From positions 1 to 24,836 of IMG/VR virus record IMGVR_UViG_2703718834_000011: a stretch of 24,836 nt of DNA; one strand, 5' to 3'. The position numbers were made by a program, and so were the translations under genes. Of the stretch, positions 1 through 21,938 are shown piece by piece (position 1 is the stretch's first letter; each line of letters begins with the position of its first letter). This DNA comes from a virus. Its lineage: Duplodnaviria; Heunggongvirae; Uroviricota; Caudoviricetes. The notes below the pieces were generated by a model. The model searched no databases and was not told where the DNA came from. It saw only the letters and a program-made list of their open reading frames with translations.

Positions 1-1053
1 TTACGGGGTAATGCCAACCGCTGCCGCCACTTTGTCGCCACTTGGCAGCGTTGCCAGAGGATTGAAACGGAGCGCCGTTTCCAGATGATCCGGTGCCAGA
101 TGTGCGTAACGCATAGTCATTTTTATATCGTGGTGTCCGAGAATTTTTTGTAAGGCCAGAATGTTTCCACCCGACATCATGAAGTGCGCCGCAAACGTAT
201 GGCGCAGAACGTGTGTGAGTTGACCGCGAGGGAGCACGATAGACGTTTTTTCCATCACGGATAAAAATTGAAAATAGCAGTCTGTGAAGAAATTGAACCC
301 ATCAAGCGCCATGATCTCTTCGTAAAGCTCTTTACTGATAGGGATGCTTCTGTTTTTCTTCCCCTTCGTTCTTACAAAGGTAATTCGGTATTTGGTCACC
401 TGTGAACGAGTAAGATTTACGGCTTCTCGCCAGCGAGCGCCTGTGCTTAAGCATATCTTAACTACCAGTGCTAGAATTGGGTCCTGACGTTTGCAATCAG
501 CCAGTAATTCAACAATCTGCTCATGGGTAAGCCATGCCATCTCTTTTTCTGCGATGGTGAATTTTCGCATGTTCTCCAGTGGGTTCGGATACGACCATTC
601 GCCCAGACGGGATAGTTCGCTAAAAACACTACTTAGATAGCTTTGCTCCAGGTTAATGGTGACCGGGCTTGCTCCTTTCTTCCATTTCTCGCTGAAGTAG
701 ATCTCGCCTGTCAGGCGTTTATCTCGATAGTGGGCAAACATTTTAGAGGTGAGATCGGTTGCAAGAGGATTGCCCAGAGCGTCAACCATCAGCAGCAATT
801 TGTCATAGACATGCTGCCCAGCAGTCAGAGATTTACCATGTAGTTTGAACCATAGCTCAACCACGTCTTTCAGGGTTCGACGATCCACTGATTCGCCCAG
901 CCATGGCTTTGATTCGGTTTCTTCCATAGTGTGACGCTCAAAAGCCAGAGCTTCGCCTTTGGTGGCGAATTGTTTACGCACACGACGCCCACTTCGTCCG
1001 GCGGGGTAACATTCGCAAAGCCATTTCCCTGTGGTGAGTTTTCGTACTGCCAT
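1..1053 (-). CDS. int: Tyrosine integrase (P2/186-type site-specific recombinase); window begins at its stop codon
   Basis: Translation from MAVRKLTTGKW... aligns by eye with P2 Int; C-terminal catalytic region LSTGARWREA ... HVLRHTFAAHFMMSGGNILALQKILGHHDIKMTMRYAHL shows the R..HxxR..Y tyrosine recombinase signature. Start set at ATG 1051-1053 (GGAGGG RBS upstream) rather than the ORF-track 1209. Confidence 0.88.
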   Translation of the reverse strand: MAVRKLTTGKWLCECYPAGRSGRRVRKQFATKGEALAFERHTMEETESKPWLGESVDRRTLKDVVELWFKLHGKSLTAGQHVYDKLLLMVDALGNPLATDLTSKMFAHYRDKRLTGEIYFSEKWKKGASPVTINLEQSYLSSVFSELSRLGEWSYPNPLENMRKFTIAEKEMAWLTHEQIVELLADCKRQDPILALVVKICLSTGARWREAVNLTRSQVTKYRITFVRTKGKKNRSIPISKELYEEIMALDGFNFFTDCYFQFLSVMEKTSIVLPRGQLTHVLRHTFAAHFMMSGGNILALQKILGHHDIKMTMRYAHLAPDHLETALRFNPLATLPSGDKVAAAVGITP

Positions 1054-1241
1054 AAAAAATGCCCTCCAGTAGAGAGCATTTTTACTGTATGTATAACCAG
1101 TGTCAATGTATGAAATCCTACGACCATACATCTCACTGAAGCCATAATGAAGTTGGCTATTCTTTTTGCTATGTGAGCATGTAACTTTTGCGGTTAACCT
1201 GCGGCTCATTTTTATTTTAGACGCAGGTATAAAAGCAAAAG

Positions 1242-1448: not shown

Positions 1449-2018
1449 CTATTTAACATACTTGACTGTTAAACTTATAATTTTACCAATTATTTCAATG
1501 TCTTCTATCTTACATTCGAAGGCTCTGTTTCCACCCTCGACGAAGATTCTTCCACCGGGTAAACGAGTAATGTCACGGATCGTTACTTCGCCATCAATAC
1601 TTATTACCCATTTACCATCACGTATATCATCAAATTCTTTATCACAAATAAATTCAGAATTGTTATCTGTGATGACAAAAGGTTTTTTAAACGTAGAGGG
1701 TAGAAATCCCTTATCAAAAATATAAAAACCGTCTTCACGCAAGGCACCATCAGATAATACATATTTAGCAACTTCCATAGTATTTGTATTACCTGAAGTT
1801 TGCTTTGAACCATGTCCGGTTGTGAGCCAATTAAGCGAGGTGCCCGTTTCAAGGGCGCACTGGATTACCCATTCTGCTGGGAATGAGTCACGCATGTAGC
1901 GTGTGGCGAGTGTACTTTTAGAGATTCCTAAATGATCGCACAACGCCTGTCGAGTTTTGAATCCATAAGCTTCTACCATGCGCTCTATAGCGCCTCGTCC
2001 GCCTTTCTCCAAATTCAT
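1449..2018 (-). CDS. cI: Phage 186-type CI immunity repressor (N-terminal HTH, C-terminal oligomerisation domain)
   Basis: About 189 aa; N-terminal ...EAYGF...LCDHLGISKSTLATRY... and C-terminal ...RLPGGRIFVEGG..FEC.I.DI. resemble 186 CI as I recall it; much larger than the 99-aa P2 C. Start set at ATG 2016-2018 (ORF-track 2024 is GTG) with GGAG RBS. Confidence 0.8.
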   Translation of the reverse strand: MNLEKGGRGAIERMVEAYGFKTRQALCDHLGISKSTLATRYMRDSFPAEWVIQCALETGTSLNWLTTGHGSKQTSGNTNTMEVAKYVLSDGALREDGFYIFDKGFLPSTFKKPFVITDNNSEFICDKEFDDIRDGKWVISIDGEVTIRDITRLPGGRIFVEGGNRAFECKIEDIEIIGKIISLTVKYVK

Positions 2019-2043
2019 GGTCACTCCAAGTGAACTTTTATCT

Positions 2044-3971: not shown

Positions 3972-4198
3972 TGGCTGATGCAATGGATCTCGTACAGCAG
4001 CGCGTTGAAGAAGAACGCCAACGCCATATCCGTGCTGCCCGTGCCAAAACGCCGGGCGTGTCCCGCGTGCTTTGCATTGAGTGTGAAGCGCCAATTCCGC
4101 CAGCACGCCGCCGTGCCATTCCGGGTGTGCAGCTTTGCATTACCTGTCAGGAAATCGCAGAGCTGAAAGGCAAACATTACAACGGAGGTGCTGTATGA
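3971..4198 (+). CDS. TraR/DksA-family C4 zinc-finger protein (P2 orf82-like)
   Basis: CIECEAPIPPARRRAIPGVQLCITCQ gives CxxC-N17-CxxC; 75 aa; stop TGA overlaps the dam start (ATGA). Confidence 0.75.
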   Translation: MADAMDLVQQRVEEERQRHIRAARAKTPGVSRVLCIECEAPIPPARRRAIPGVQLCITCQEIAELKGKHYNGGAV

Positions 4199-5052
4199 GC
4201 ACCATCCTGAAATGGGCGGGAAATAAAACTGCCATAATGTCCGAACTGAAAAAACATCTTCCTGCTGGCCCGCGACTGGTTGAACCTTTCGCGGGTTCCT
4301 GTGCTGTGATGATGGAGACGGATTATCCCAGCTATCTGGTTGCGGATATTAATCCTGATTTAATCAACCTCTATAAAAAGGTTGCCGCTGATTGTGAATC
4401 GTTTATATCTCGCGCCAGAGTTTTATTTGAGATCGCAAACAGGGAGGTGGCTTATTACAACATAAGGCAGGAGTTTAATTACTCAACTGAAATTACTGAT
4501 TTCATGAGAGCGGTATATTTCCTGTATCTCAATCGTCACGGTTACCGTGGTTTATGTCGCTATAACAAGAGCGGGCATTTCAACATTCCCTACGGTAATT
4601 ATAAAAATCCGTATTTCCCTGAAAAAGAAATTCGCGCATTTGCAGAAAAGGCCCAGCGAGCAACGTTTATCTGCGCCAGCTTTGATGAAACGCTGGCGAT
4701 GTTGAAGGCGGGGGATGTGGTGTATTGCGATCCGCCGTATGACGGTACGTTTTCCGGCTATCACACTGACGGCTTCACTGAAGATGACCAGTATCACCTG
4801 GCATCTGTTCTTGAACATCGGTCATCAGAAGGACATCCGGTCATTGTTTCTAACAGTGACACATCCCTGATCCGTTCGCTGTATCGCAATTTTACTCACC
4901 ACTACATCAAGGCAAAACGCAGCATCGGTGTGGCAGCTGGCGAGGGTAAATCAGCAACAGAAATCATTGCTGTTTCCGGGCCGCGCTGCTGGGTGGGATT
5001 TGATTATTCGCGTGGCGTGGATAGTTCTGCCGTGTACGGAGTACGTGCATGA
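4195..5052 (+). CDS. dam: DNA adenine methyltransferase (Dam-like, GATC N6-adenine MTase)
   Basis: [11 protein letters not shown]..., FAGSCAV (AdoMet-binding motif I) and DPPY catalytic motif (CDPPYDGTF). Start at ATG 4195 with GGAGG RBS; the ORF-track N-terminal extension from 4135 overlaps the TraR-like gene and is rejected. Confidence 0.85.
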
Positions 5053-7463
5053 GTCATGCCGATATGAACAACTGCTGCGGCTTTAACGAAGCTGCCGCAT
5101 CGTTCTCATGGAACAGCCCGAAAAAGGCCATTAACCCTTATCTGGACCCGGTGGAAGTTGCGCCGGTTTCTACGCTTTCAAACCTGATCACTCTGTACAC
5201 TGCCGATAACGAGCAGGAACAGCTGCGCCGTGAGGCGCTGAGTGATCAGGTCTGGGAGCGTTATTTCTTTAATGAATCCCGTGATCCTGTCCAGCGCGAA
5301 ATGGAACAGGATAAGCTCATTAGTCGGGCAAAGCTGGCGCATGAGCAGCAGCGTTTTAATCCGGATATGGTCATTCTGGCGGACGTCAACGCCCAGCCTT
5401 CCCATATCAGCAAGCCGCTGATGCAACGTATTGAATACTTCAGCAGCCTGGGCAGGCCAAAGGCTTATTCCCGCTATTTACGTGAGACGATTAAGCCATG
5501 TCTGGAACGACTGGAGCATGTACGCGACAGTCAGCTATCTGCATCTTTTCGCTTTATGGCAAGCCATGAAGGGCTGGACGGCCTGCTGATCCTGCCTGAA
5601 ATGAGTCAGGATCAGGTGAAACGCCTGTCCACCCTGGTAGCTGCGCATATGAGTATGTGCCTTGATGCCGCTTGTGGCGATTTGTATGCCACCGATGACG
5701 TTAAGCCAGAGGAAATCCGCAATACATGGGAAAGGGTGGCAGCGGAAACCCTGCGTCTGGATGTCATCCCGCCTGCGTTTGAGCAACTCCGTCGGAAAAG
5801 AAACCGCCGTAAACCCGTGCCCTATGAACTCATTCCGGGTTCGCTGGCGCGTATGTTGTGCGCCGACTGGTGGTATCGGAAATTATGGAAGATGCGTTGC
5901 GAATGGCGGGAAGAGCAGTTGCGTGCAGTCTGCCTTGTCAGCAAAAAAGCATCTCCTTATGTCAGCTATGAAGCCGTGATGCATAAACGTGAGCAGCGCC
6001 GTAAGTCGCTGGAGTTTTTCCGTTCTCATGAACTGGTGAACGAAGACGGCGACACGCTGGACATGGAGGATGTGGTAAACGCCAGCAGCAGCAACCCAGC
6101 GCATCGCCGCAATGAGATGATGGCCTGTGTTAAAGGTCTGGAGCTTATCGCGGAAATGCGCGGTGACTGCGCCGTTTTCTACACCATCACCTGTCCGTCA
6201 CGTTTCCATTCCACGCTAAATAACGGCAGGCCCAACCCAACCTGGACAAATGCGACGGTAAGACAAAGCAGTGATTATCTGGTCGGCATGTTTGCTGCAT
6301 TTCGTAAGGCGATGCACAAAGCCGGATTGCGGTGGTATGGCGTGCGGGTGGCTGAGCCGCATCATGACGGTACAGTTCACTGGCACCTGTTGTGTTTTAT
6401 GCGCAAAAAAGACCGCCGCACCATCACTGCATTACTGCGTAAGTTTGCCATCCGTGAAGACCGCGAGGAGCTGGGCAATAACACTGGGCCGCGCTTTAAG
6501 TCTGAGTTGATTAACCCGCGCAAAGGTACGCCAACAAGCTACATCGCGAAATACATCAGTAAGAACATTGACGGGCGTGGTCTGGCTGGCGAGATCAGCA
6601 AGGAAACGGGGAAATCCCTGCGTGATAATGCTGAATACGTTAATGCCTGGGCGTCTCTGCATCGTGTTCAGCAATTCCGCTTCTTTGGCATTCCGGGGCG
6701 TCAGGCTTACCGTGAACTGCGATTGCTGGCTGGTCAGGCGGCAAGGCAACAGGGGGACAAAAAAGCAGGTGCGCCGGTACTGGATAACCCGCGCCTTGAT
6801 GCCATTCTGGCTGCTGCTGATGCTGGTTGTTTTGCCACCTACATCATGAAGCAGGGTGGCGTACTGGTTCCCCGCAAATATCACCTCATCAGAACTGCTT
6901 ATGAAATCAACGAAGAGCCGACCGCCTATGGCGATCACGGCATTCGTATTTATGGCATCTGGTCACCTATTGCAGAGGGCAAGATCTGCACTCATGCCGT
7001 GAAGTGGAAAATGGTTCGTAAGGCCGTTGACGTTCAGGAGGCGGCAGCCGACCAGGGCGCTTGCGCCCCTTGGACTCGTGGCAATAACTGTCCCCTTGCT
7101 GAAAATTTGAACCAACAGGAGAAAGATAAATCAGCAGATGGGGACCCCAGAACGGATATTATCAGCATGGATGACAAGGAGTTGCACGATTTCCTGCACA
7201 GTATGAGCAAAAAAGAGCGCCGGGAACTGGCAGAAAGGCTACGCCTGGTTAAACCGATACGGCGTAAAGACTACAAACAGCGAATTACAGACCATCAGCG
7301 ACTGCAGCTCGTCTATGAGCTGAAGTCCAGAGGATTTGATGGTAGCGAGAAAGAGGTCGATTTACTCCTTCGCGGCGGCAGTATTCCGTCAGGAGCAGGC
7401 CTGCGTATCTTCTATCGGAACCAGCGTTTGCGGGAAGATGATAAGTGGCGGAACCTGTATTAA
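5049..7463 (+). CDS. A: Replication initiation protein A (rolling-circle HUH endonuclease, P2 gpA / 186 A family)
   Basis: 804-aa ORF with HUH-type motif GTVHWHLL and tyrosine-containing motif YIAKYISK; position after the early operon matches P2/186; start ATG overlaps dam stop (ATGA). Confidence 0.9.
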
Positions 7464-7555
7464 TTACGCGGGTTAACAATTCGTGCTCTAAATAATACCC
7501 GGTATATCAGGCTGATGAACGTAAAAAAACGTTTTACATCAGTAAGATTATTGTA

Positions 7556-7575
7556 TACTGTGAATATAAACAGTG
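7556..7575. promoter_or_regulatory. LexA (SOS) box TACTGTGAATATAAACAGTG, with a degenerate second half-site immediately downstream
   Basis: CTGT-N8-ACAG spacing with AT-rich centre; overlaps a possible promoter (TTTACA 7533-7538, TATACT 7554-7559); about 40 bp upstream of the ATG at 7617. Confidence 0.55.
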
Positions 7576-7616
7576 GTTATATATACAGTATTGCGTGTGG
7601 TGTCATAGGAGGAAAA

Positions 7617-7805
7617 ATGCAGGACTATTTTTTGGAGTCTTTGAAGCTCCAGCGCATTGATTTTTTTCTTAAGCTTGTCGCGGCTAGTGAGTGTAGTGAT
7701 GAAGAGAAGGGGCTGGCTCTGCAGTGGGTTTCTGAATTGACTGATGAACTTATGGCAAAAATCAGAACTCACGAATACAACCGCTCAATGGATGTCATCA
7801 GTTGA
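7617..7805 (+). CDS. Small hypothetical protein (62 aa), first gene of a LexA-box-preceded pair; possible Tum-like antirepressor module
   Basis: ATG 7617 preceded by AGGAGG; the ORF-track upstream extension (7515) would run across the LexA box and is rejected. Confidence 0.45.
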   Translation: MQDYFLESLKLQRIDFFLKLVAASECSDEEKGLALQWVSELTDELMAKIRTHEYNRSMDVIS

Positions 7806-7815
7806 GGTGACTTTT

Positions 7816-8049
7816 ATGCGCATTGAAATAATGATCGATAAAGAGCAGAAGATTAGCCAGTCTACCCTGGACGCCCTTGAATCCGAGCTTTACCGCAATC
7901 TGCGCCCCCTGTATCCCAAAACGGTAATTCGTATCCGAAAAGGTAGCTCTAACGGTGTGGAACTGACCGGACTGCAACTGGACGAAGAAAGAAAACAAGT
8001 GATGAAAATTATGCAGAAGGTGTGGGAAGACGACAGCTGGCTGCATTAA
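7816..8049 (+). CDS. DinI-family protein (DNA-damage-inducible protein I-like), 77 aa
   Basis: MRIEIMIDKEQ...LDALESELYRNL...KQVMKIMQKVWEDDSWLH aligns by eye with E. coli DinI (MRIEVTIAK...IDALAGELSRRI...ISEILQETWESADDWF); GAGGTG RBS; start at ATG 7816. Confidence 0.72.
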   Translation: MRIEIMIDKEQKISQSTLDALESELYRNLRPLYPKTVIRIRKGSSNGVELTGLQLDEERKQVMKIMQKVWEDDSWLH

Positions 8050-8138
8050 GAAACGTTGCTGGCATCAGTACTTGATTCTGAAGCCAGCAAGGTTGAACAA
8101 CGAGCAGGGCGAGGCGTTAGTGTTATCATCAAAGAATT

Positions 8139-8696
8139 TCACATAAACATCTGGATTTGCTCGTTTTTTAGTTGGTTGATTTTTTCGCGCAATCTGATCT
8201 TTTCATCAGCTTTTTCCAAAGAGGCTGGTGACATGCAGTTAATCAAAGCGTCAAGGTGCTCTGGAGATTTGATAATAAAGAACTTTTTGTATTTATTAAC
8301 AAAAACGACAGAGCATTTTTTACGTTTAAGAAGCTCAATCACGTTACTCAGAGTACCCGTGCTCTTCGTATCCCAAACCATTAATCCATAATCGGCTTCT
8401 TCTGCCATTTTGAGATCTTTCGCAGTGAAAAACGCGCGAGTGCCGGCTGCATGGCTAGTACTTACTACATGTACAGGCCATGAGCCAAGATTATTGCGCG
8501 GTTTTTCTGAGCTACTGAATACTGTGGCTTTTTTACATCCAAGTTCTAGCAATACGCGTTGAACAGATGAATCAACACCATTGGCATCACCAACTACAAT
8601 ACGAAAACGCGAGTTAACAATTTTTTTCAGACGATCCACGATGAGTGTGTCAAGGTTTTTGATGGTTATTGAACCAGCAACAAATACCGTAGTCAT
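8139..8696 (-). CDS. SLOG / DprA-like Rossmann-fold protein (about 185 aa), downstream partner of the PRTase gene
   Basis: VFVAGSITIKNLD...RIVVGDANGVDSSVQRVLLELG...GLMVWDTKSTGTLSNVIELLKRKKCSVVFV resembles the DprA/LOG fold (compare DprA VVSGLARGID ... SGSLITARLALEQG). Start set at ATG 8694-8696 (GGAG RBS), 2 nt after the PRTase stop; the track start 8708 is TTG. Confidence 0.6.
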   Translation of the reverse strand: MTTVFVAGSITIKNLDTLIVDRLKKIVNSRFRIVVGDANGVDSSVQRVLLELGCKKATVFSSSEKPRNNLGSWPVHVVSTSHAAGTRAFFTAKDLKMAEEADYGLMVWDTKSTGTLSNVIELLKRKKCSVVFVNKYKKFFIIKSPEHLDALINCMSPASLEKADEKIRLREKINQLKNEQIQMFM

Positions 8697-8698
8697 CA

Positions 8699-9280
8699 CT
8701 ATCTCCAAGTCAAAGCTGCAACATAAATGCTTCTAACCTTAGTATAATCGTTTAGCACAGCACAAGCAGCCTCCATAGATGCGCCTGTATGGTAGAGGTC
8801 GTCAATGATAAGGACATTCCAGTTGCCATTATTCTCAATACTGTCATTAACAGAGAACGAATTACCCAGCGCCGTGATTTTCTCTTCTTTTGTATTCAGG
8901 TTCTTTAGCGAAGCCCCGCCGGGGGCTTTCAACAAGAGGTCATCGAAGCATGGTTTGCCAACTAGTTTGGCTAGTTCCTGAGCTATTTCGGTCACTGGCT
9001 GGCGTGCACGCTGATTAGATGCAGCCATTGGAACGATAAACCCGACATTGCTGAAATGAGGAAAGGCATGCTCTGCTAGGCATTGGGCTAAAGGCTTAAC
9101 TTGTGACCAATCGTCACGGTATTTAAGCTGGAAAAGAGATTCGCCTACCTCAGTACGCTCAGTCTCAAACCGCATATGTCCCCACTCATCGTAACCAATG
9201 GGAATGCTGCGGATGCTGTGTTTATCCATCGCAAGACCTAATTCCCAATTTCCAACAATCTGTTTTATGTTGACTTTCAT
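8699..9280 (-). CDS. Type I phosphoribosyltransferase-domain protein (ComF/PRTase-like), 193 aa
   Basis: C-terminal PRPP-binding motif NVLIIDDLYHTGASMEAA (hydrophobic-DD-x-x-TG-x-S/T); ATG at 9280 with RBS; tightly coupled to the SLOG gene. Confidence 0.7.
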   Translation of the reverse strand: MKVNIKQIVGNWELGLAMDKHSIRSIPIGYDEWGHMRFETERTEVGESLFQLKYRDDWSQVKPLAQCLAEHAFPHFSNVGFIVPMAASNQRARQPVTEIAQELAKLVGKPCFDDLLLKAPGGASLKNLNTKEEKITALGNSFSVNDSIENNGNWNVLIIDDLYHTGASMEAACAVLNDYTKVRSIYVAALTWR

Positions 9281-9551
9281 GGCTCACCGTTTGCTGTGTA
9301 AAACACCAAAGATTACCTCTTGTTATATTTGGTGAAAGCGAAAGTTTCATTTTTTGCAGTGGAGATCAAATGTTACTCCGTGAACATTTTTAGCATGTGG
9401 CCTCGCTACACGGTTTGGCGTAACTACTGCATGTCTATACTGCATGAATCCGCATGATCGTTTAAGGATCGCTCTAGTTGGGGCCTGCTAGGTATGGCGG
9501 GCTTTTGCTTATGTCATGCAGGTGCATGAAAACCACTATATAAAGCGGGCA

Positions 9552-9570
9552 GGCGTGGCGGGGATACGAG
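9552..9570 (+). other. Candidate cos cohesive-end site (GGCGTGGCGGGGATACGAG)
   Basis: First 13 nt match the 186/P2 cos sequences as I recall them (186 GGCGTGGCGGGGAAAGCAT; P2 GGCGAGGCGGGGAAAGCAC), followed by GCGCGCTG; orientation relative to Q matches P2. Confidence 0.45.
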
Positions 9571-9583
9571 CGCGCGCTGGTTA

Positions 9584-9611
9584 ATTTATATGAGAACAAT
9601 CTCATATAAAT
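9584..9611. repeat. Perfect 12-bp inverted repeat with 4-bp spacer (ATTTATATGAGA-acaa-TCTCATATAAAT)
   Basis: Read directly from the sequence; about 14 bp right of the cos-like site and about 75 bp upstream of the ATPase start. Confidence 0.6.
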
Positions 9612-9685
9612 ATTCGAGACAAGTTGCAAAAAAACGCGGAGCATTATATGTTTAGTAGCAAATTCTGAACGTTGAGAATATTAAA

Positions 9686-10954
9686 ATGGAAATTTTTGAT
9701 ACGAATGATATCTTTGGGCTCTCAAGAGATTTGCCACTTAATTACATTGAAAGACCTGATGTTGATTTCAAACTTAAACAGGAATTACAAGCAAAGAAAC
9801 ATATTGTTATTTACGGCAGTTCAAAGCAGGGTAAGACTTGCGTAAGAAAACACTGTATTAATTCTGATGATTATATTTTGGTGCAGTGTTCGAATCGTTC
9901 TGATGTATCTGAATTGAATGCAAGTATTTTAAAAAGAGCTGGATTCGAAATAACTCAGTCTACCAAGAAAGGTATTACGGGGAAAAATAAAATAATCGCA
10001 TCAATAAAAACTTCTATTTTGGGCTTTGTGGCGAGTGCCGGAGGCGAGATCGAAGATACGAAATCTCATGAACAAGTAACCGCGCCTTTAGAAATTGATG
10101 TTGATGATGTTAATGATGTTATAGCGGCTTTAAAATCTATAAATTTCAAGAAGATTATCGTTCTTGAGGATTTTCATTATATGCCTTTCGAAACTCAAAG
10201 AGATTTTTCGATCGCATTAAAAGCCTTTCATGAAACATCAAGCATTATTTTTGTAATTGTTGGAGTTTGGCTAGAAGATAATCGGCTCATTGTCTACAAT
10301 GGTGACTTAACTGGCAGGATTATTTCTGTTAACGCAGACAAATGGCAAGATTCTGAACTGGAGATGGCAATTGATAAAGGAGGTTTACTCCTTAACATTG
10401 ATTTTGATCCAACTTTCAAAGCAGATGTAGTAACACACTGTCTCAATAGTATTTATTTAGTGCAAGAAGCATGTAGGCGTGCGTGTATTGAATGCGGAAT
10501 ATCAGAGACTCAGCAAACAAAAAGAACTATTGGAGCTGGTTTGGATGGAAAGGATATCATTGCAAAAATTGTTAATGACCAATCGGCTCGTTACAATTCT
10601 TTCCTTATTAATTTTTCAGATGGATTTCAAGATACTGAACTTCAAATGCATAAATGGATTTTATATCCTGTCCTTTCATCAACCATTAGTGAACTTGAAT
10701 TAGGTTTGAAATTTAAAGATATAAGGGCAATATTACAAAGTGTACATCCAAGAGGGGAGAAGTTAAACCTGGGTAATGTTACTCAGTCGTTACAATCAAC
10801 GGCGTCTTTGCAAATAAAGAAAAATATAATGCCTATTATTTTGGATTATGACCAAACAAATAGGAAACTGAATGTTGTTGATAAAGGCTTCCTAATATGG
10901 TTGCAACATCAAGATATCAAAGATCTAAAGGATGATTTGGAGTTGCCAAATTAA
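9686..10954 (+). CDS. P-loop NTPase (Walker A and B), 422 aa, AT-rich; candidate single-gene defence or moron ATPase
   Basis: Walker A IVIYGSSKQGKTC (GxxxxGKT) and Walker B KKIIVLEDFH; ATG at 9686; C-terminal about 250 aa without recognisable motif; visibly lower G+C than flanking phage genes; sits between the cos-like site and Q. Confidence 0.65.
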   Translation: MEIFDTNDIFGLSRDLPLNYIERPDVDFKLKQELQAKKHIVIYGSSKQGKTCVRKHCINSDDYILVQCSNRSDVSELNASILKRAGFEITQSTKKGITGKNKIIASIKTSILGFVASAGGEIEDTKSHEQVTAPLEIDVDDVNDVIAALKSINFKKIIVLEDFHYMPFETQRDFSIALKAFHETSSIIFVIVGVWLEDNRLIVYNGDLTGRIISVNADKWQDSELEMAIDKGGLLLNIDFDPTFKADVVTHCLNSIYLVQEACRRACIECGISETQQTKRTIGAGLDGKDIIAKIVNDQSARYNSFLINFSDGFQDTELQMHKWILYPVLSSTISELELGLKFKDIRAILQSVHPRGEKLNLGNVTQSLQSTASLQIKKNIMPIILDYDQTNRKLNVVDKGFLIWLQHQDIKDLKDDLELPN

Positions 10955-10970
10955 TTCATGTCTTTATTAT

Positions 10971-11002
10971 AGATAATGGCGCCTATGTAGGCGCCATTAT
11001 CT
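10971..11002. terminator. 13-bp perfect stem with 6-nt loop (AGATAATGGCGCC-tatgta-GGCGCCATTATCT) between convergent ATPase and Q genes; possible bidirectional terminator
   Basis: Perfect inverted repeat ending at the Q stop codon; lacks a clear U-tract on either strand, so terminator function is uncertain. Confidence 0.35.
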
Positions 11003-12033
11003 TAGAATTCAAGTGTATACGGTTTGAATTGGATTATATTCTCATTAGACCAACTATTTAATCCTTTTATTCTTTCCTGTAATGGTATTAGCTCATTCCT
11101 CACAAACACACAGCTAGCCTTTTCCACATCCCCAAATCCTCCAACATTATTAGGTATAATCCCCATCATTTGCGGTGGTACGCGGTGCGCAGCCATCATG
11201 TCATCGCGGCTGACATTTTTGATATTCAGAAACTCATCCTTCGCCGCAACTTCTGACAGAGGAATGATCTGAAGCCCATCCTTTTTGCCATTAGGTGAGT
11301 ACATAAACAGGTTGCGGAAATTGCCTGGACCTTTGGCGCTTTTCATCGCGTTGCGGAGGTTGTTCACATCCTCCTGGTTCTGCGCCGCATCGGTCATGTA
11401 CATGATGAAGCCTGCATGACTGCCGTTAATGTAATACTTGCGGCGGAACAGCGTGGCGGACTCGTTGAGCAAAGCGGATGGGATGGCAGAAAGATAGCCG
11501 GGCAGGCCGTAGATCTCCTGATTAATATCCGGTTCCATCAGATGAAAAATGCTGCCTTTCGTGAACTGATACGGCTGGGTTGTCATACCGTATTGCATAA
11601 ACCAGTAGGTATCCAGGTCTAACCCGCGTCGGGTGTATTTTGCCAGAGCAGGCTCAAGGGCTATAACTTCACCGAAGCGGTTCGTGCGTTTCTCCAGGTA
11701 GGCGTTACCAAATACCAGATAGTCCTGCACAAAACGTGAAAAAGCCTGCTGGCTGAGCAGCGGGTGAGGGATGTAGGTACTGGTCAGAATGTTGCATTTC
11801 ACCGCAATTGGTGAGCTGTGATGCACGGCAGCGCGGAAGGTTCGCGCCAGTCCGTCAAAACTCACTGGCGGCTCATACCAGCGATCTGTCTGTACGCATT
11901 CCACATAGTCCAGTAGTTCACGGCGGTCCAGAACCGGAACGGGATCGCCGAAGCTGAATGCTTCGGCTGAAGTCTGGTTTTTATGCTGGATCTGTTTCGT
12001 CGCCGCAGCGCGGTTCTTCTTACTCTTTCCCAT
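11002..12033 (-). CDS. Q: Portal (capsid portal vertex) protein, P2 gpQ family
   Basis: About 343 aa, same size and position as P2 Q (first gene right of cos, divergent from O); start set at ATG 12031-12033, which overlaps the P stop (ATGA). Confidence 0.88.
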   Translation of the reverse strand: MGKSKKNRAAATKQIQHKNQTSAEAFSFGDPVPVLDRRELLDYVECVQTDRWYEPPVSFDGLARTFRAAVHHSSPIAVKCNILTSTYIPHPLLSQQAFSRFVQDYLVFGNAYLEKRTNRFGEVIALEPALAKYTRRGLDLDTYWFMQYGMTTQPYQFTKGSIFHLMEPDINQEIYGLPGYLSAIPSALLNESATLFRRKYYINGSHAGFIMYMTDAAQNQEDVNNLRNAMKSAKGPGNFRNLFMYSPNGKKDGLQIIPLSEVAAKDEFLNIKNVSRDDMMAAHRVPPQMMGIIPNNVGGFGDVEKASCVFVRNELIPLQERIKGLNSWSNENIIQFKPYTLEF

Positions 12034-13799
12034 CAAAAAATCTCCACAATATTGCTGATATTGGCGGACTCGCCCTGCAGCGGTTCGTTAAACAGTGCGT
12101 GCATTGTTGCCCAGGCCAGATCGGCATGGCTGGCTTCTTCGCTGCGGCTGGCTTCATAGGTCGGGCGGTTGCCGCTGGCGGTGGTGGCGCGACGGATTGC
12201 CATAAATGACTGCGCAATGTCGGTGTGCCCGGCGTCAAACTCCAGACGGCGGTGGCTGATAATGTCGTAGGCCTTGAGTACCAGGGCGTTTTTAACGTTG
12301 GGGTTATAGACAAACTCCCGGACGGCAGGAAAGAACGCTTTCACGTTCTCGTAAACCCCGTGACCGACGCCGGTTGAGTCGATGCCGATGTAGGTCACGT
12401 TGTACTGTTCGGTCAGTTTTTTGATGGCGTCAGCCTGGGCGCGGAAGTCCATTCCGCGCCACTGGTGACGCTCAAGAATGCGGAACTTACCGCCCGGCAC
12501 GGCTGGCGGTGCCACCACCACGCACCCGGCGCTGTCGCCGTTTTGCGTACCTTTTGCCGGGTCATAACCGATCCACACTTCGCGCCAGCCAAACGGGCGC
12601 AGCGCCAGTGCATGAAAGTCGGTCCAGACTTCCCAGCTGTCCACCATGCACCCCTGCAGCTCGCTGAGCGGGAACACGGACGCGAGATCGTCCACGAACT
12701 CACACATCAGCAGGTTCTGGTATTCATCCGGGCTGTATTCCATGCGTAACTGGTCGAGGTCGAACAAGTTGCAGCCGCCGCGCACCGCATCTTCCACAGT
12801 GACTATCTGGCGGTACTGCCCGTCTGCGCACAGCAGGCCGGGGGCCAGATTGCTGTGGGACAGGTCGATGTCCACCTTGTCGGCTTTGTTGCGTCCACGG
12901 TTGAACAGCGCACCGGACCAGAACGGATAAGCACTGTGGGTCAGGCTGGATGGCGTGGAAAAATAGGTTTGTCGCCATTTTTTGTGAATAGCCATACCGG
13001 AAGCCACTTTGCGCAGCTCCTGGAATTTCGGTATCCAGAAATATTCATCCAGATACAGGTTACCGTGATAACTCTGGGCTGTGCGGGCATTGGTGCCGAG
13101 GAAGTAAAGCGTGGCCCCGTTAGGAAGCACCATCGGATCGCCTTTCAGCTCCACCTCCACTTCTTTGGCGAAGTCGATGATGTACTGCTTAAAGACGTGG
13201 GCCTGTGCCTTACTGGCGGAAAGGAAAATCTGGTTACGTCCGGTCAGCAGGGCGTCAATCAGGGCTTCACGGGCAAAGTAAAAGGTCGCGCCGATCTGGC
13301 GTGACTTCAGCAGGTTGCGGATGCGGTTGGTTTTTCCGGCTTCCCACCAGTGGCGCTGGTAGTTGAACATGGAGGAGTGGAAGATTTCTTCCAGCTTCTC
13401 AATTTGTTCATCGGTGAAAACGTTCTTTTCCGGCTGACGGCGCGGGCCTTTGTTGCGGTTGGCGACGTTAGGGTTTAAGTCGGCTTCGTTACCGCCATTG
13501 TTAAACTTGCCGATGCGCGCGTGGCGCTCCGACTGGCGCGCCAGCAGGTCAATTTCTTTGAAATCTTTCCCTTCTTTGTGCTCCTTCATAATGAGCTGGC
13601 AGTAGCGTGCGGCGGTGGTGAGCTGCATCTGATCCAGCGGCCCATAGTCACCCCACTTGTCGCGTTTTTTCCAGCTGTGAACGGTTGCAACTTTCTCGCC
13701 CAGCATTTCAGCAATGCGGGCTACGCGGTATCCCTGAAAGTACAGCAGCATGGCCTGCCGACGGGGATCGAGATCTGCGGGTGTCAGTGTGGTGTTCAT
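12033..13799 (-). CDS. P: Terminase large (ATPase) subunit, P2 gpP family
   Basis: 588 aa; position upstream of Q and divergent from O matches P2; ATG at 13797-13799. Confidence 0.88.
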   Translation of the reverse strand: MNTTLTPADLDPRRQAMLLYFQGYRVARIAEMLGEKVATVHSWKKRDKWGDYGPLDQMQLTTAARYCQLIMKEHKEGKDFKEIDLLARQSERHARIGKFNNGGNEADLNPNVANRNKGPRRQPEKNVFTDEQIEKLEEIFHSSMFNYQRHWWEAGKTNRIRNLLKSRQIGATFYFAREALIDALLTGRNQIFLSASKAQAHVFKQYIIDFAKEVEVELKGDPMVLPNGATLYFLGTNARTAQSYHGNLYLDEYFWIPKFQELRKVASGMAIHKKWRQTYFSTPSSLTHSAYPFWSGALFNRGRNKADKVDIDLSHSNLAPGLLCADGQYRQIVTVEDAVRGGCNLFDLDQLRMEYSPDEYQNLLMCEFVDDLASVFPLSELQGCMVDSWEVWTDFHALALRPFGWREVWIGYDPAKGTQNGDSAGCVVVAPPAVPGGKFRILERHQWRGMDFRAQADAIKKLTEQYNVTYIGIDSTGVGHGVYENVKAFFPAVREFVYNPNVKNALVLKAYDIISHRRLEFDAGHTDIAQSFMAIRRATTASGNRPTYEASRSEEASHADLAWATMHALFNEPLQGESANISNIVEIF

Positions 13800-18898: not shown

Positions 18899-19292
18899 AG
18901 CGGTGCCTTATGTCCGCAATAACCCGGACAAACTGCATCTGTTTGTGGATAACGGTTCGCTGGTTGCCACGGGGGCCAGCTCCATGTCATGGGAGTACCG
19001 CTACACCCTGAACGTGGTGATTGAGGATTTCAGCGGCGACCAGAATCTGCTGATGGCCCCGGTTTTGCTGTGGCTGCGTGATAACCAGCCCGATGCCATC
19101 AATAACCCGGCGTTACGGGAAAAGCTATTCACCTTTGAGGTGGATATTCTGCGCAACGATGTCTGTGATATCAGCCTCAACCTGCAACTGACGGAGCGTG
19201 TGCTGGTCAGCACTGACGGCAGTGTGTCGAGCGTTGAAGCTATAGCGGAACCTGATGAACCTGAAGAAATGTGGACGGTGAAACGTGGCTGA
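18861..19292 (+). CDS. R: Tail completion protein R (P2 gpR family)
   Basis: From GTG 18861 (AGGAG RBS): VNKPQSLRHALNKAV...LHLFVDNGSL... parallels P2 R (MLKPDSLRRALTDAV...LRIFVDNGSI...); the ORF-track start 18840 is TTG. Confidence 0.8.
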   Translation: MNKPQSLRHALNKAVPYVRNNPDKLHLFVDNGSLVATGASSMSWEYRYTLNVVIEDFSGDQNLLMAPVLLWLRDNQPDAINNPALREKLFTFEVDILRNDVCDISLNLQLTERVLVSTDGSVSSVEAIAEPDEPEEMWTVKRG

Positions 19293-19737
19293 ACTGCAGA
19301 AAGTGGACGACTGGCTGAGTGCCTTGCTGGCGAATCTGGAGCCAGCCGCAAGAAGCCGCATGATGCGCCAGCTGGCGCAGGAACTACGCCGGACACAGCA
19401 GCAAAATATCAGAATGCAGCGCAATCCAGATGGCAGCAGTTATGAACCGCGACGGGTAACAGCACGCAGTAAAAAAGGCCGTATCAAACGTCAGATGTTT
19501 GCAAAGCTGCGCACCACAAAATACCTGAAAACTTCCGCCAGCGCCGACTCTGCCAGCGTGCAGTTTGAAGGCAAGGTACAGCGCATTGCCCGTGTTCACC
19601 ACTACGGATTGAGAGAGCGGATAGGTAAAAGAAGCAAAAGTATTAAATACCCAGCTCGCAGATTGCTGGGACAGACCCAAGAGAGTAACCAGATAATTCT
19701 AAACACTCTCTTGAGGTGGATGACAAAAGATAACTAA
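19285..19737 (+). CDS. S: Tail completion protein S (P2 gpS family)
   Basis: 150 aa; GTG start overlapping the R stop; the last codons lie in AT-rich sequence abutting the convergent SIR2-like gene. Confidence 0.78.
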   Translation: MAELQKVDDWLSALLANLEPAARSRMMRQLAQELRRTQQQNIRMQRNPDGSSYEPRRVTARSKKGRIKRQMFAKLRTTKYLKTSASADSASVQFEGKVQRIARVHHYGLRERIGKRSKSIKYPARRLLGQTQESNQIILNTLLRWMTKDN

Positions 19738-19740
19738 ATT

Positions 19741-21261
19741 CTAAGCTGGGGTTATCAGAGTATCAATTCTCTTGATATCTGCAGCCGTTGCGTGAGGGCA
19801 TTTTTTCAGGATGTTTAGCCATTTTTTATCTCTGGGTTGGTATTCTAAGTCACCATCGGTTTCAAGTTTCGAAAGAATGCCAACAATATCACTGTGGCTA
19901 ATCCAATCTTGTTTTTCTTTAAATACATTCCATGTTGCCCAGCACTTCCCTATTTCAGATGGGGACGACCATCGCATAATTTCTATTATATGGGATATTT
20001 TTTTGTCGAAACTTTCAGTGCCGGGGCTAGGGCTTATTCTTAAAATGTTAGAGAAAGGTACTTCAGCATAGTTGAAGTCCCAAACCCCTTCTGTTTCGAT
20101 GCACATTTTGACAACAGAAGCATGAAAATCTTGACGTATAAGCTCGTCAGGGTAACCGTGATTGTTGCTAAGTGTTATGACTACATTAACTAAAGCATCG
20201 AACTCTCTGTAGGGGATAATATTGTCTGGAGAAAGAAGTTTTCCGCCGAATTGAATGTACAATATTGGTTTCTTTAGAATGTCAATTATGGCTTTTGTCA
20301 CGGCCCAGCTTGCAGCTCTTTGAGGACATAAGGCTTCTAGTTCCGCTTTTTTATTTTTTTTTCCTTTCGTAACGGTATCCATTACAGTTTTTATTTTGGG
20401 AAGAACATGTTCGTGCTCAAGGTTGAAACGATGAGGTGATTCTTTAAAGGATTTATATTCCTGAGATAAATCTGCAAGGAAGTCTTCTATGGTTGCTTTA
20501 ATCAGGTGTATATTTTTTGATTTAAATAAATACTTTGTCTCCTCGAAAGTTAAAGGGTTTGCATCTGGGTGAATTACCATGAATGCTGGCGGGTTTTTTC
20601 CATGCAGATGTGCTAATGCTTCTTCATAAAGGAAACCTATATTTGGGTCGGTTAAGCTGTAACCGATGAATATAGGGGACATTTCTGAAAACAATGTGTA
20701 AATTTTTCGGCTAAGATAAGTGTCTTCGCGCTGAAAAGAAAAGTATTGACTTTGTGTTATAACAATCGAATCAGGTTTTCCGACGTCACCATGAATTTTG
20801 AAGATATTTTTCCCTTTTGTTGATACTTTAGGGAATGGATCCTTTCTGATGATTTTATTTGCCATATGCTCAAATGTTTCTTCAAGCACCTCATCCCAGT
20901 TAGTTGTTACAATTGTATTGGGAGCGAAGAGTTTGAATCTTTTAAGCCATCTTGGTTCTTTAGTTTCTGTTTTTAAATCTATAATCGTCCTGGCAACGAG
21001 CGAATTGAAATCATATTCTTTTATTGATGATTCACTCATCGCATAACTTAAAAGTAATTCTGCAGCACGCAGAGGCTGTGATGAATCTAATTTTAACGGG
21101 TACTCTATTCGCTTTGCTATTTCTTCAAGTACGGCCCCCCAACTTGGATATCCGAAATTGTACGAAAATCCAGAGCCAATCCAGAGGAAATAACTCTTTG
21201 AAAATACTGATGATAATAGGGATTTTTTATTTTCTGAAGATAATTGATCTAAGCAACTCAT
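19741..21261 (-). CDS. SIR2-domain protein (defence-type sirtuin-like NADase fold at N-terminus, uncharacterised C-terminal domain), about 506 aa, AT-rich insertion between S and V
   Basis: Motifs FLWIGSGFS (GAGxS-like Rossmann loop), IVTTNWDEVLE (TTNxD) and IFKIHGDV (catalytic His) in the order seen in ThsA/DSR-type SIR2 domains; start set at ATG 21259-21261 with GGAAGGA RBS (track start 21330 is GTG). Confidence 0.65.
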   Translation of the reverse strand: MSCLDQLSSENKKSLLSSVFSKSYFLWIGSGFSYNFGYPSWGAVLEEIAKRIEYPLKLDSSQPLRAAELLLSYAMSESSIKEYDFNSLVARTIIDLKTETKEPRWLKRFKLFAPNTIVTTNWDEVLEETFEHMANKIIRKDPFPKVSTKGKNIFKIHGDVGKPDSIVITQSQYFSFQREDTYLSRKIYTLFSEMSPIFIGYSLTDPNIGFLYEEALAHLHGKNPPAFMVIHPDANPLTFEETKYLFKSKNIHLIKATIEDFLADLSQEYKSFKESPHRFNLEHEHVLPKIKTVMDTVTKGKKNKKAELEALCPQRAASWAVTKAIIDILKKPILYIQFGGKLLSPDNIIPYREFDALVNVVITLSNNHGYPDELIRQDFHASVVKMCIETEGVWDFNYAEVPFSNILRISPSPGTESFDKKISHIIEIMRWSSPSEIGKCWATWNVFKEKQDWISHSDIVGILSKLETDGDLEYQPRDKKWLNILKKCPHATAADIKRIDTLITPA

Positions 21262-21295
21262 AAGAATCCTTCCAAAACAGATTTGATGATCATCT

Positions 21296-21313
21296 TGTGT
21301 GGGTGACTGCACA
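21296..21313. promoter_or_regulatory. TGT-N12-ACA dyad (TGTgtgggtgactgcACA), candidate late-activator site for the V-W-J-I-H operon
   Basis: Near-identical to the dyad at 13846-13863; 47 bp upstream of the V ATG, between divergent SIR2-like and V genes. Confidence 0.4.
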
Positions 21314-21359
21314 AACCTCTTTAATATCACTGTCGTTTACGATAGGCAATGATTTCCAT

Positions 21360-21938
21360 ATGAACGCACAACTAACCGAAATCATGCGCCTTATCACCAA
21401 CCTGATCCGCACCGGCACCGTGACCGAAGTGGATCGGGAAAACTGGCTTTGCCGGGTGAAAACAGGCGACCTCGAAACCAACTGGATTAACTGGCTGACG
21501 CTGCGTGCCGGTGGTGCCCGTACATGGTGGTGTCCGTCGCCGGATGAGCAGGTGGTGGTGCTGAGCATGGGGGGCAATCTGGAAACCGCTTTTGTGCTGC
21601 CCGCCATCTACTCCAGTCAGTTTGCGCCTCCGTCGGATTCCGTGGACGGCTGCGTGACGGAGTACCCGGACGGCGGCAGGTTTGAGTACGAACCCGCCAC
21701 CGGGCGATGGTACGTCCGGGGTATCAAATCCATGGTGATCGAGGCGGCAGACAATATCACCCTCAAAACCGGTCAGTTTGTGGTGGAGGCTGACACCACG
21801 CGCATCAACAGCGAGGTGGTGATCAATGGTGGCGTCACCCAAGGCGGCGGCGCGATGAGTTCCAACGGAGTCGTGGTTGACGACCATGAGCATACTGGCG
21901 TCCTGAAAGGCGGCGATACAACCGGAGGCCCGGTATGA
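21360..21938 (+). CDS. V: Baseplate spike / assembly protein V (P2 gpV family)
   Basis: MNAQLTEIMRLITNLIRTGTV...WLTLRAGGARTWWCPS...AFVLPAIYS parallels P2 V (MNTLANIQELARALRNMIRTG...WLTHRAGRSRTWWAPS...AFVLPGIYS); start at ATG 21360. Confidence 0.85.
   Translation: MNAQLTEIMRLITNLIRTGTVTEVDRENWLCRVKTGDLETNWINWLTLRAGGARTWWCPSPDEQVVVLSMGGNLETAFVLPAIYSSQFAPPSDSVDGCVTEYPDGGRFEYEPATGRWYVRGIKSMVIEAADNITLKTGQFVVEADTTRINSEVVINGGVTQGGGAMSSNGVVVDDHEHTGVLKGGDTTGGPV

Follow-up and report, generated by a model that had tools for sequence, protein, structure and literature searches.

A conserved AAA+/winged-helix ATPase carried as candidate anti-phage cargo between cos and the portal gene of a P2-like prophage

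What is a lone, AT-rich ATPase gene doing between the cohesive-end site (cos) and the portal gene of a P2-like prophage? The question is raised by a stretch of 24,836 nucleotides (IMG/VR record IMGVR_UViG_2703718834_000011, positions 1 to 24,836; hereafter the window), which is a P2-like prophage and carries, at 9686-10954 on the plus strand, an open reading frame (ORF) of 422 amino acids (aa). As the original prediction, made from the sequence alone, had it, the product contains a Walker A motif (GSSKQGKT) and a Walker B motif (IIVLEDFH). It is identical to the RefSeq protein WP_000402159.1, whose coding sequence in related genomes has the same length as the ORF of the window. We establish with high confidence that the gene is accessory cargo and that its product belongs to the AAA+ class with a lid and a winged helix, and we lean towards reading it as an autonomous AAA+/winged-helix anti-phage gene.

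The protein matches the profile of the PADLOC family PDC-S59 over its full length, with aa 5-411 aligned to positions 4-405 of the 428 in the profile (E = 4.8e-72, 241 bits). The PDCs are 145 phage defence candidates, nominated from members embedded in BREX, DISARM or type I restriction-modification operons (Payne et al., bioRxiv 10.1101/2024.01.29.577857); DefensePredictor left them out as unvalidated. In addition, WP_000402159 is entered as "hypothetical" in Table S5A of the study that described the gpA-gpQ interval, "adjacent to cos", as a defence hotspot of P2-like phages; it lies outside the systems curated or tested there, and the table pairs it with further partners, including a KAP NTPase (Rousset et al. 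2022, PMC9122126). Since the identical protein and its family had both been catalogued in a known hotspot, the ATPase is of an already known kind, and the supposition that the gene had gone unnoticed does not hold. It is a catalogued but uncharacterised candidate with no characterised relative. What it shares with PDC-S59 is the full-length profile match, the single-gene organisation and the embedding of members in a known defence system (Hma).

An exchangeable cassette between cos and Q

The ATPase gene lies between replication gene A (5049-7463) and the portal gene Q (11002-12036, minus strand), to which it is convergent. On its left, a P2-type cos core of 150 bp (9428-9577) contains the 19-nt cohesive-end sequence GGCGTGGCGGGGATACGAG (9552-9570), which matches the P2 cosR/cosL 19-mer at 14 of 19 positions by count from the alignment; the 124 bp ahead of the 19-mer align with the right end of P2. 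The position between cos and Q given by the original prediction is thus correct, but the distance that it gave for P2, about 100 bp, is not: cos and the end of Q are 167 bp apart in P2 (cosL 1-19, Q stop 187), as against 1431 bp in the window. Pairwise BLAST delimits the difference as a cassette of ~1.43 kb on the plus strand (9578-11005, cos to the Q stop codon). The G+C content of the ATPase ORF, 0.343 (0.27 at third codon positions), is well below that of Q (0.49), of the terminase gene P (0.57; 12033-13799, minus strand, followed by the capsid and tail genes) and of A (0.53), as had been claimed.

The gene is rare, present in 11 of the 5426 complete E. coli genomes, and is absent from P2 and from more than 99% of the E. 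coli P2-like prophages. The cos core is common: it is found in ~1250-1440 of the same 5426 genomes at 84-100% identity, and also in P2-like phages of Klebsiella, Yersinia and Salmonella. Sequence similarity between the window and prophages with other cargo stops at 9577, and similarity to prophages with the same ATPase begins at 9428 or 9523. For example, the 30EVA1 prophage is 99% identical to the window over 7401-9577 and 91% identical over 11006-12300 by pairwise BLAST, with a frameshifted AIPR gene in between. Conversely, the IMT5155 and 20Y000092 prophages carry the same ATPase and are 97-99% identical over 9428-12300, but differ in their genes left of cos, which comprise a DUF4145 protein gene in one and three hypothetical genes in the other. 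Of the IMG/VR prophage contigs, five carry a gene for a 100% identical protein and share the region from 9428 onward at 97-99%, with different cargo on the left; in the four of them that include the left flank, the left-hand cargo gaps are ~1.0, 1.2 and 1.7 kb, compared with 1.4 kb in the window. Left-hand cargos of at least five kinds accompany the right-hand ATPase cassette, and the left-hand gene pair of the window is found with an AIPR gene, a three-gene set or the ATPase on its right. No complete E. coli genome among the 5426 has the exact combination of left and right cargo seen in the window.

Other occupants of the cos-Q interval in E. coli P2-like prophages are the three-gene set just mentioned (STEC379), a DUF262 protein (ET350), a full-size pair of phosphoribosyltransferase (PRTase) and DprA (ST131 strain 4224, locus L011) and a DUF6953 protein (VG12A2). 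The interval is empty now and then, as in USMARC-51688 (~150 bp); cos and the 3' end of Q were at most ~0.7 kb apart in 3 of 60 records, a spread sample from the 1444 matching. The expectation of an empty cos-Q junction in relatives thus stands for P2 and a few relatives, but most E. coli P2-like prophages carry cargo there. In Klebsiella and Serratia P2-like prophages, orthologues with 76-86% identity occupy the same pre-portal slot, and a homologue with 60% identity is found in an unrelated Burkholderia prophage type. In the Serratia prophages (L016-L018, ~8700-9296), the ATPase orthologue is separated from the portal gene by a HicA/HicB toxin-antitoxin pair, so two cassettes can fit into the slot right of cos.

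Judged from these alignments, the hotspot falls into two sub-slots, one on each side of the cos core, whose contents assort independently; the right-hand one is bounded at 9578 and ~11005. The core serves both as the left anchor of the cassette and as the recombination breakpoint between the sub-slots. The cassette would be exchanged by homologous recombination anchored on the cos core and Q, and a single crossover at cos would let one prophage shuffle its defences. The location of the ATPase between A and Q, in an interval whose content differs among relatives, fits hotspot cargo, and the gene resembles the known cargo of the gpA-gpQ hotspot (old, tin, DprA+PRTase, DUF4238) in its locus, its cassette swapping and its low G+C. 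It differs from P2 old and tin in standing on the Q side of cos rather than on the A side, and neither old, which encodes an ABC ATPase with a TOPRIM domain, nor tin is related to it in sequence or fold.

Left of cos, the window carries an overlapping pair of minus-strand genes (8139-8708 and 8699-9280). One encodes a 193-aa ComF/PRTase-like protein (ShosT, 1.3e-8; PsyrT, 1.5e-7) and the other a 189-aa protein with a weak match to PsyrA and a match to phrog_289; the same pair is found in 30EVA1 and STEC379. These matches suggest a scaled-down relative of the DprA+PRTase (ShosTA/PsyrTA-type) system, whose activity against T7 and lambda was validated by Rousset et al. (2022, PMC9122126).

Two inverted repeats flank the ATPase gene. 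The upstream one (9584-9595/9600-9611) begins 14 nt to the right of the cos 19-mer; the 12-nt arms of the original prediction are perfect, but they are separated by a 4-nt spacer and form a hairpin rather than a contiguous palindrome (-11.9 kcal/mol as RNA, z = -5.4). It is present in every E. coli copy of the cassette and could be an operator, an insulator or a remnant of the junction. The Klebsiella and Serratia orthologues have no such repeat upstream, which rules out a family-wide operator and implies that the gene family does not need it. The downstream one (10971-10985/10988-11002) is a G+C-cored hairpin, perfect and adjoining the Q stop codon as predicted, although its arms measure 15 nt and fold into a 14-bp stem instead of 13 bp. 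With ~-24 kcal/mol on either strand (z = -6.7 and -8.3) and its location at the position of the annotated P2 terminator tQ, it is probably a bidirectional terminator between the ATPase gene and Q. Upstream of the gene, a candidate sigma-70 promoter (9624-9652, plus strand; TTGCAA, 17 nt, TATGTT) has 8 of 12 consensus matches. It falls below the threshold of the promoter scanner, which reported none. The TTGCA...CATTATAT block that it occupies is among the few stretches kept between the otherwise diverged E. coli and Klebsiella upstream regions, in the form TTGCA(A/T), 17 nt, TAT(G/C)TT, and we infer that it may serve as the ATPase promoter. A search of the entire window against Rfam at gathering thresholds gave no match.

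The proximity to cos (14 nt between the 19-mer and the upstream repeat), together with a predicted DNA-binding fold, could be taken to indicate a morphogenesis or packaging accessory ATPase of the P2 family, acting at the adjacent cos. This explanation is effectively refuted. Firstly, an accessory of the P2 packaging machinery should not be missing from P2 and nearly all E. coli P2-like prophages. Secondly, tblastn of the ATPase against 50,697 deposited phage genomes gave no match, and among viral sequences its relatives came solely from IMG/VR prophage contigs. Thirdly, different phyla have chromosomal homologues outside any phage context. A terminase-like packaging ATPase was likewise rejected, since the protein has no terminase or portal family match in Pfam and gpP is encoded by a separate gene. 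Thus, homology to a packaging or morphogenesis ATPase is absent and the presence of the gene is non-uniform among relatives, both in keeping with the original view of an acquired moron.

A three-domain AAA+ ATPase with a winged helix

The original prediction had left the C-terminal ~250 residues without a recognisable motif. This is correct at the level of sequence: the sole Pfam match of the protein, AAA_22, is sub-threshold (21.3 bits against a cut-off of 27 bits), a PDB sequence-profile search up to E = 10 gave no match, NCBIfam yielded nothing meaningful for the ATPase, and PHROGs matches it only to a function-unassigned family. It is not correct at the level of fold, since in the predicted structure these residues form an AAA+ lid and a winged helix. 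The N-terminal part (aa 1-220; 9686-10345) comprises a conserved motif and the AAA+ alpha/beta core, with Walker A at aa 44-51 (9815-9838) and Walker B at aa 157-164 (10154-10177); it is followed by the helical lid domain (aa 221-270; 10346-10495) and by an extended winged-helix domain with a beta-hairpin wing at aa 386-397 (aa 271-422; 10496-10951), all on the plus strand. Both Walker motifs are invariant or almost so in homologues: K50 of Walker A is invariant and E161 of Walker B nearly so, even at 25-30% identity. In the winged-helix domain, Q376 and D399 are invariant. The core, the lid and the winged helix account for all 422 aa, and no nuclease, TIR, SIR2, protease or transmembrane module was found in them.

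The core contains an insertion (aa 86-137; 9941-10096, plus strand) that separates helix alpha2 from the Walker B strand. It is predicted to consist of a basic beta-hairpin of net charge +4 and, after it, a disordered, Gly-rich and acidic loop, with a prediction confidence (pLDDT) below 50 at aa 109-131. Column entropy and indels in the alignment place the insertion among the most variable regions of the protein. The insertion is a soluble hairpin and loop and not a transmembrane segment, and KAP-family NTPases were rejected on this ground and for want of any KAP match in Pfam or PADLOC. A four-cysteine metal site (C57/C68/C263/C267), suggested by its invariance in close homologues, is weakened by the distant homologues, which keep only C68 and C267.

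In structure comparisons, the predicted model came closest to two archaeal proteins, the Walker-type ATPase PABY2304 (2qen; score 18.2) and the AAA+ ATPase SSO1545 (2fna; 17.2), each with 298 residues aligned, followed by the archaeal initiator Orc1/Cdc6 (2qby; 14.8). The STAND proteins NB-ARC, CED-4 and MalT and the transposition ATPase TnsC scored ~12-13, and clamp loaders, MuB and BrxC ~10-12; Foldseek ranked Orc1/Cdc6 at the top. The window ATPase has the same three-domain plan of P-loop core, lid and winged helix as Orc1/Cdc6 (2qby, 1fnn) and the PF01637 ATPases (2qen, 2fna), but is only 10-13% identical to them and is not linked to them by Pfam or PDB profile searches. It also departs from the initiators in its genomic status, and may do so in the initiator-specific motif (ISM). 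This motif is helical, and the insertion of the window ATPase at that position is predicted to be a beta-hairpin with a disordered loop; Orc1/Cdc6 is a chromosomal initiator, whereas the window ATPase is accessory, mobile and AT-rich.

Other P-loop proteins to which it might be compared fit less well. A transposition ATPase of the TniB/TnsC/MuB type was discarded, since TniB scored 17.3 bits against a cut-off of 22.4 and neither the window nor the 80 loci surveyed below have a transposase next to the gene. BrxC/PglY of BREX and IetA of IetAS act only with partners (BrxB/PglZ and others, and the protease IetS, respectively), unlike the window ATPase, which has no conserved partner; a PADLOC scan of the ATPase returned no BrxC or IetA model.

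A conserved family without a fixed partner

The family is large. A search at 90% clustering gave more than 2300 matches, and 2113 cluster representatives fall within an E value of 1e-3; nearly all of these proteins are 415-450 aa long and alignable end to end. Proteins 47-62% identical to the E. coli one occur in Acidobacteriota, Cyanobacteria, Firmicutes, Actinobacteria, Bacteroidota, one bacterium of the candidate phyla radiation and two haloarchaea, and relatives lie on 37 IMG/VR viral contigs. In 69 of 70 other species the homologue has a lower G+C than its flanking DNA, with a median difference of -15.6 points. By sequence and composition, the family is thus highly conserved yet perpetually foreign in its hosts, and the AT-richness of these genes, like the presence of the window gene in so few genomes, bears out the view of the gene as an accessory moron acquired horizontally. 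Fusion proteins were considered as a clue to an effector and proved uninformative: they consist of rare long relatives (P0239 and P0260, 791 and 860 aa), in which an extra NTPase module (nSTAND3 type) is fused ahead of the family domain, and of a single alpha/beta-hydrolase fused to a partial family copy (P0200).

We surveyed the neighbourhoods of homologues in 80 loci from different species (L027-L106). No ORF family occupies a fixed position within 5 kb across these loci, which agrees with the description of the gene as a stand-alone P-loop NTPase; the largest neighbour cluster, an ABC-F type ATPase, is represented in 9 of the 80 at scattered positions. In two Firmicutes metagenome-assembled genomes (L055, L064), HmaA lies upstream and HmaB downstream of the homologue, both with E = 0. 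Immediate neighbours in the 80 species include TIR effectors, DpdF-like helicases, PbeA, PsyrT, PDC-S35 and integrases, and further neighbours are Mrr-like and DUF4365 nucleases and HicAB. The match to PDC-S59, the embedding between HmaA and HmaB and these defence-type neighbours make the gene a plausible single-gene defence candidate, as originally suggested.

One form that such a defence could take is that of a minimal STAND/NLR-like sensor, which would recognise a phage protein through the variable loop at aa 109-131 and through variable segments of the lid and linker, oligomerise, and cause cell death or arrest (abortive infection) by way of a host effector acting in trans or of runaway ATP hydrolysis. 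The nucleotide-binding domain and the helical and winged-helix core of Avs1-5, bNACHT and MalT are indeed also present in the window ATPase. However, the STAND defence proteins are ~1000-2000 aa long, and the window protein, with 422 aa, has neither an N-terminal effector nor C-terminal sensor repeats (TPR, LRR or WD40 in Pfam). A conserved partner gene is likewise lacking, and a host effector in trans is hard to square with hosts that range from E. coli to haloarchaea. The conservation of the family also lies far above that of Avs-type sensors. We therefore regard this explanation as unlikely.

A different role is suggested by the adjacency of some homologues to ribonucleotide reductase (RNR) genes. 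Three lineages, representing two RNR classes, have homologues that immediately follow RNR genes in the same orientation: Pseudomonas/Stutzerimonas (nrdAB), Vogesella (nrdAB) and three Acidobacteriaceae (class II NrdJ) (loci L004-L007, L019-L021, L029, L041, L070 and L074). By a rough estimate, chance alone would produce only ~0.1 such adjacencies in ~85 lineages. Co-transcription with nrdB is doubtful in P. aeruginosa, where a terminator-like hairpin lies between nrdB and the homologue. This hairpin favours a conserved anchor or landing pad, comparable to cos and Q in the window, over an operon. The identification of the P. aeruginosa homologue with PA1154 of PAO1 was ruled out, because PA1154 is a RAYT transposase; the site downstream of nrdB is thus variable and not core. 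A functional link between the position after RNR genes and dNTP supply is more speculative.

Together with the architecture of replication initiators, the extreme conservation of the family and the existence of loci without defence neighbours, this adjacency would suit a non-immune function: an ORC-like DNA-binding switch for the replication, maintenance or transcription of the element, a counter-defence gene, or an RNR-linked nucleotide function. Such a function would be hard to reconcile with the dispensability and rarity of the gene among near-identical prophages, with its free pairing with left-hand cargos and with the embedding in Hma systems; P2 moreover has an initiator of its own, gpA, and the hairpin after nrdB points to a landing pad. 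We consider a non-immune function improbable.

Proposed function and neighbouring cargo

A defensive role of one kind or another is, in our estimation, probable. The function that we favour for the autonomous AAA+/winged-helix cargo gene is the protection of the lysogen, by a prophage-encoded protein, against other phages. The ATPase would be expressed in the lysogen from its own promoter. In its ATP state it would oligomerise on the nucleic acid of the invader, at a DNA end, an origin or a replication intermediate, contacting it through the winged helix and through the basic beta-hairpin, which is predicted to lie at the site of the DNA-contacting ISM in initiator-clade AAA+ proteins. Occupancy would then block phage replication or packaging, or titrate an essential factor, and ATP hydrolysis would reset the protein. 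An analogue for the third step is P2 Tin, which poisons gp32 of T4. A mode of action by occupancy is suggested because the protein has no nuclease, TIR, SIR2 or protease module of its own. In addition, the very high conservation of the family suits a ligand of a generic kind more readily than a phage protein that evolves fast.

We put forward the specific mechanism of DNA occupancy tentatively, and think it less probable than defence as such. The wider proposal is a little more doubtful still, namely that PDC-S59 represents a new mechanistic class of stand-alone, effector-less Orc1/Cdc6-like proteins that assemble on invading DNA in an ATP-dependent manner and impose a steric blockade; a generic ligand would then explain why 47-62% identity is kept despite horizontal moves across phyla and into archaea. 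Three points weigh against our proposal. The ATPase is net acidic, and the structural matches of its winged helix are generic. Lastly, we found in the literature no functional study of PDC-S59, of WP_000402159 or of Cdc6-like anti-phage proteins, and no published phenotype.

Elsewhere in the window, the prophage encodes an integrase (1-1209, minus strand), a CI repressor (1449-2024, minus strand) and a DinI-like protein (7744-8049). An orphan adenine methyltransferase of the D12 class (Dam-like; 4135-5052, plus strand; Pfam 4.5e-77, PADLOC orphan methyltransferase 1.5e-111) lies just 5' of, and overlaps, gene A, and is also carried by related prophages. A second island of low G+C (0.35-0.40; 19741-21330, minus strand) stands between the tail gene S (19285-19737) and the baseplate gene V (21297-21938), at a position that we take to be the orf30 slot of P2. 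It encodes a 529-aa SIR2-like protein (SIR2_2, 3.5e-26 in Pfam; PDC-S25, 7.6e-29, and ThsA, 7e-25, in PADLOC) and is probably further defence cargo.

If the ATPase gene does not defend, it would be a caution on calls made by guilt by association, such as the PDC set. If it does, it would be among the few single-protein systems without a recognisable killing or degrading module, and its interest would rise substantially with the demonstration of an effector-less mechanism. It would then offer a clean model of an initiator-type AAA+ switch repurposed for immunity, and a defensive function would account for the strong conservation of the family alongside its perpetual foreignness in AT-rich guise.

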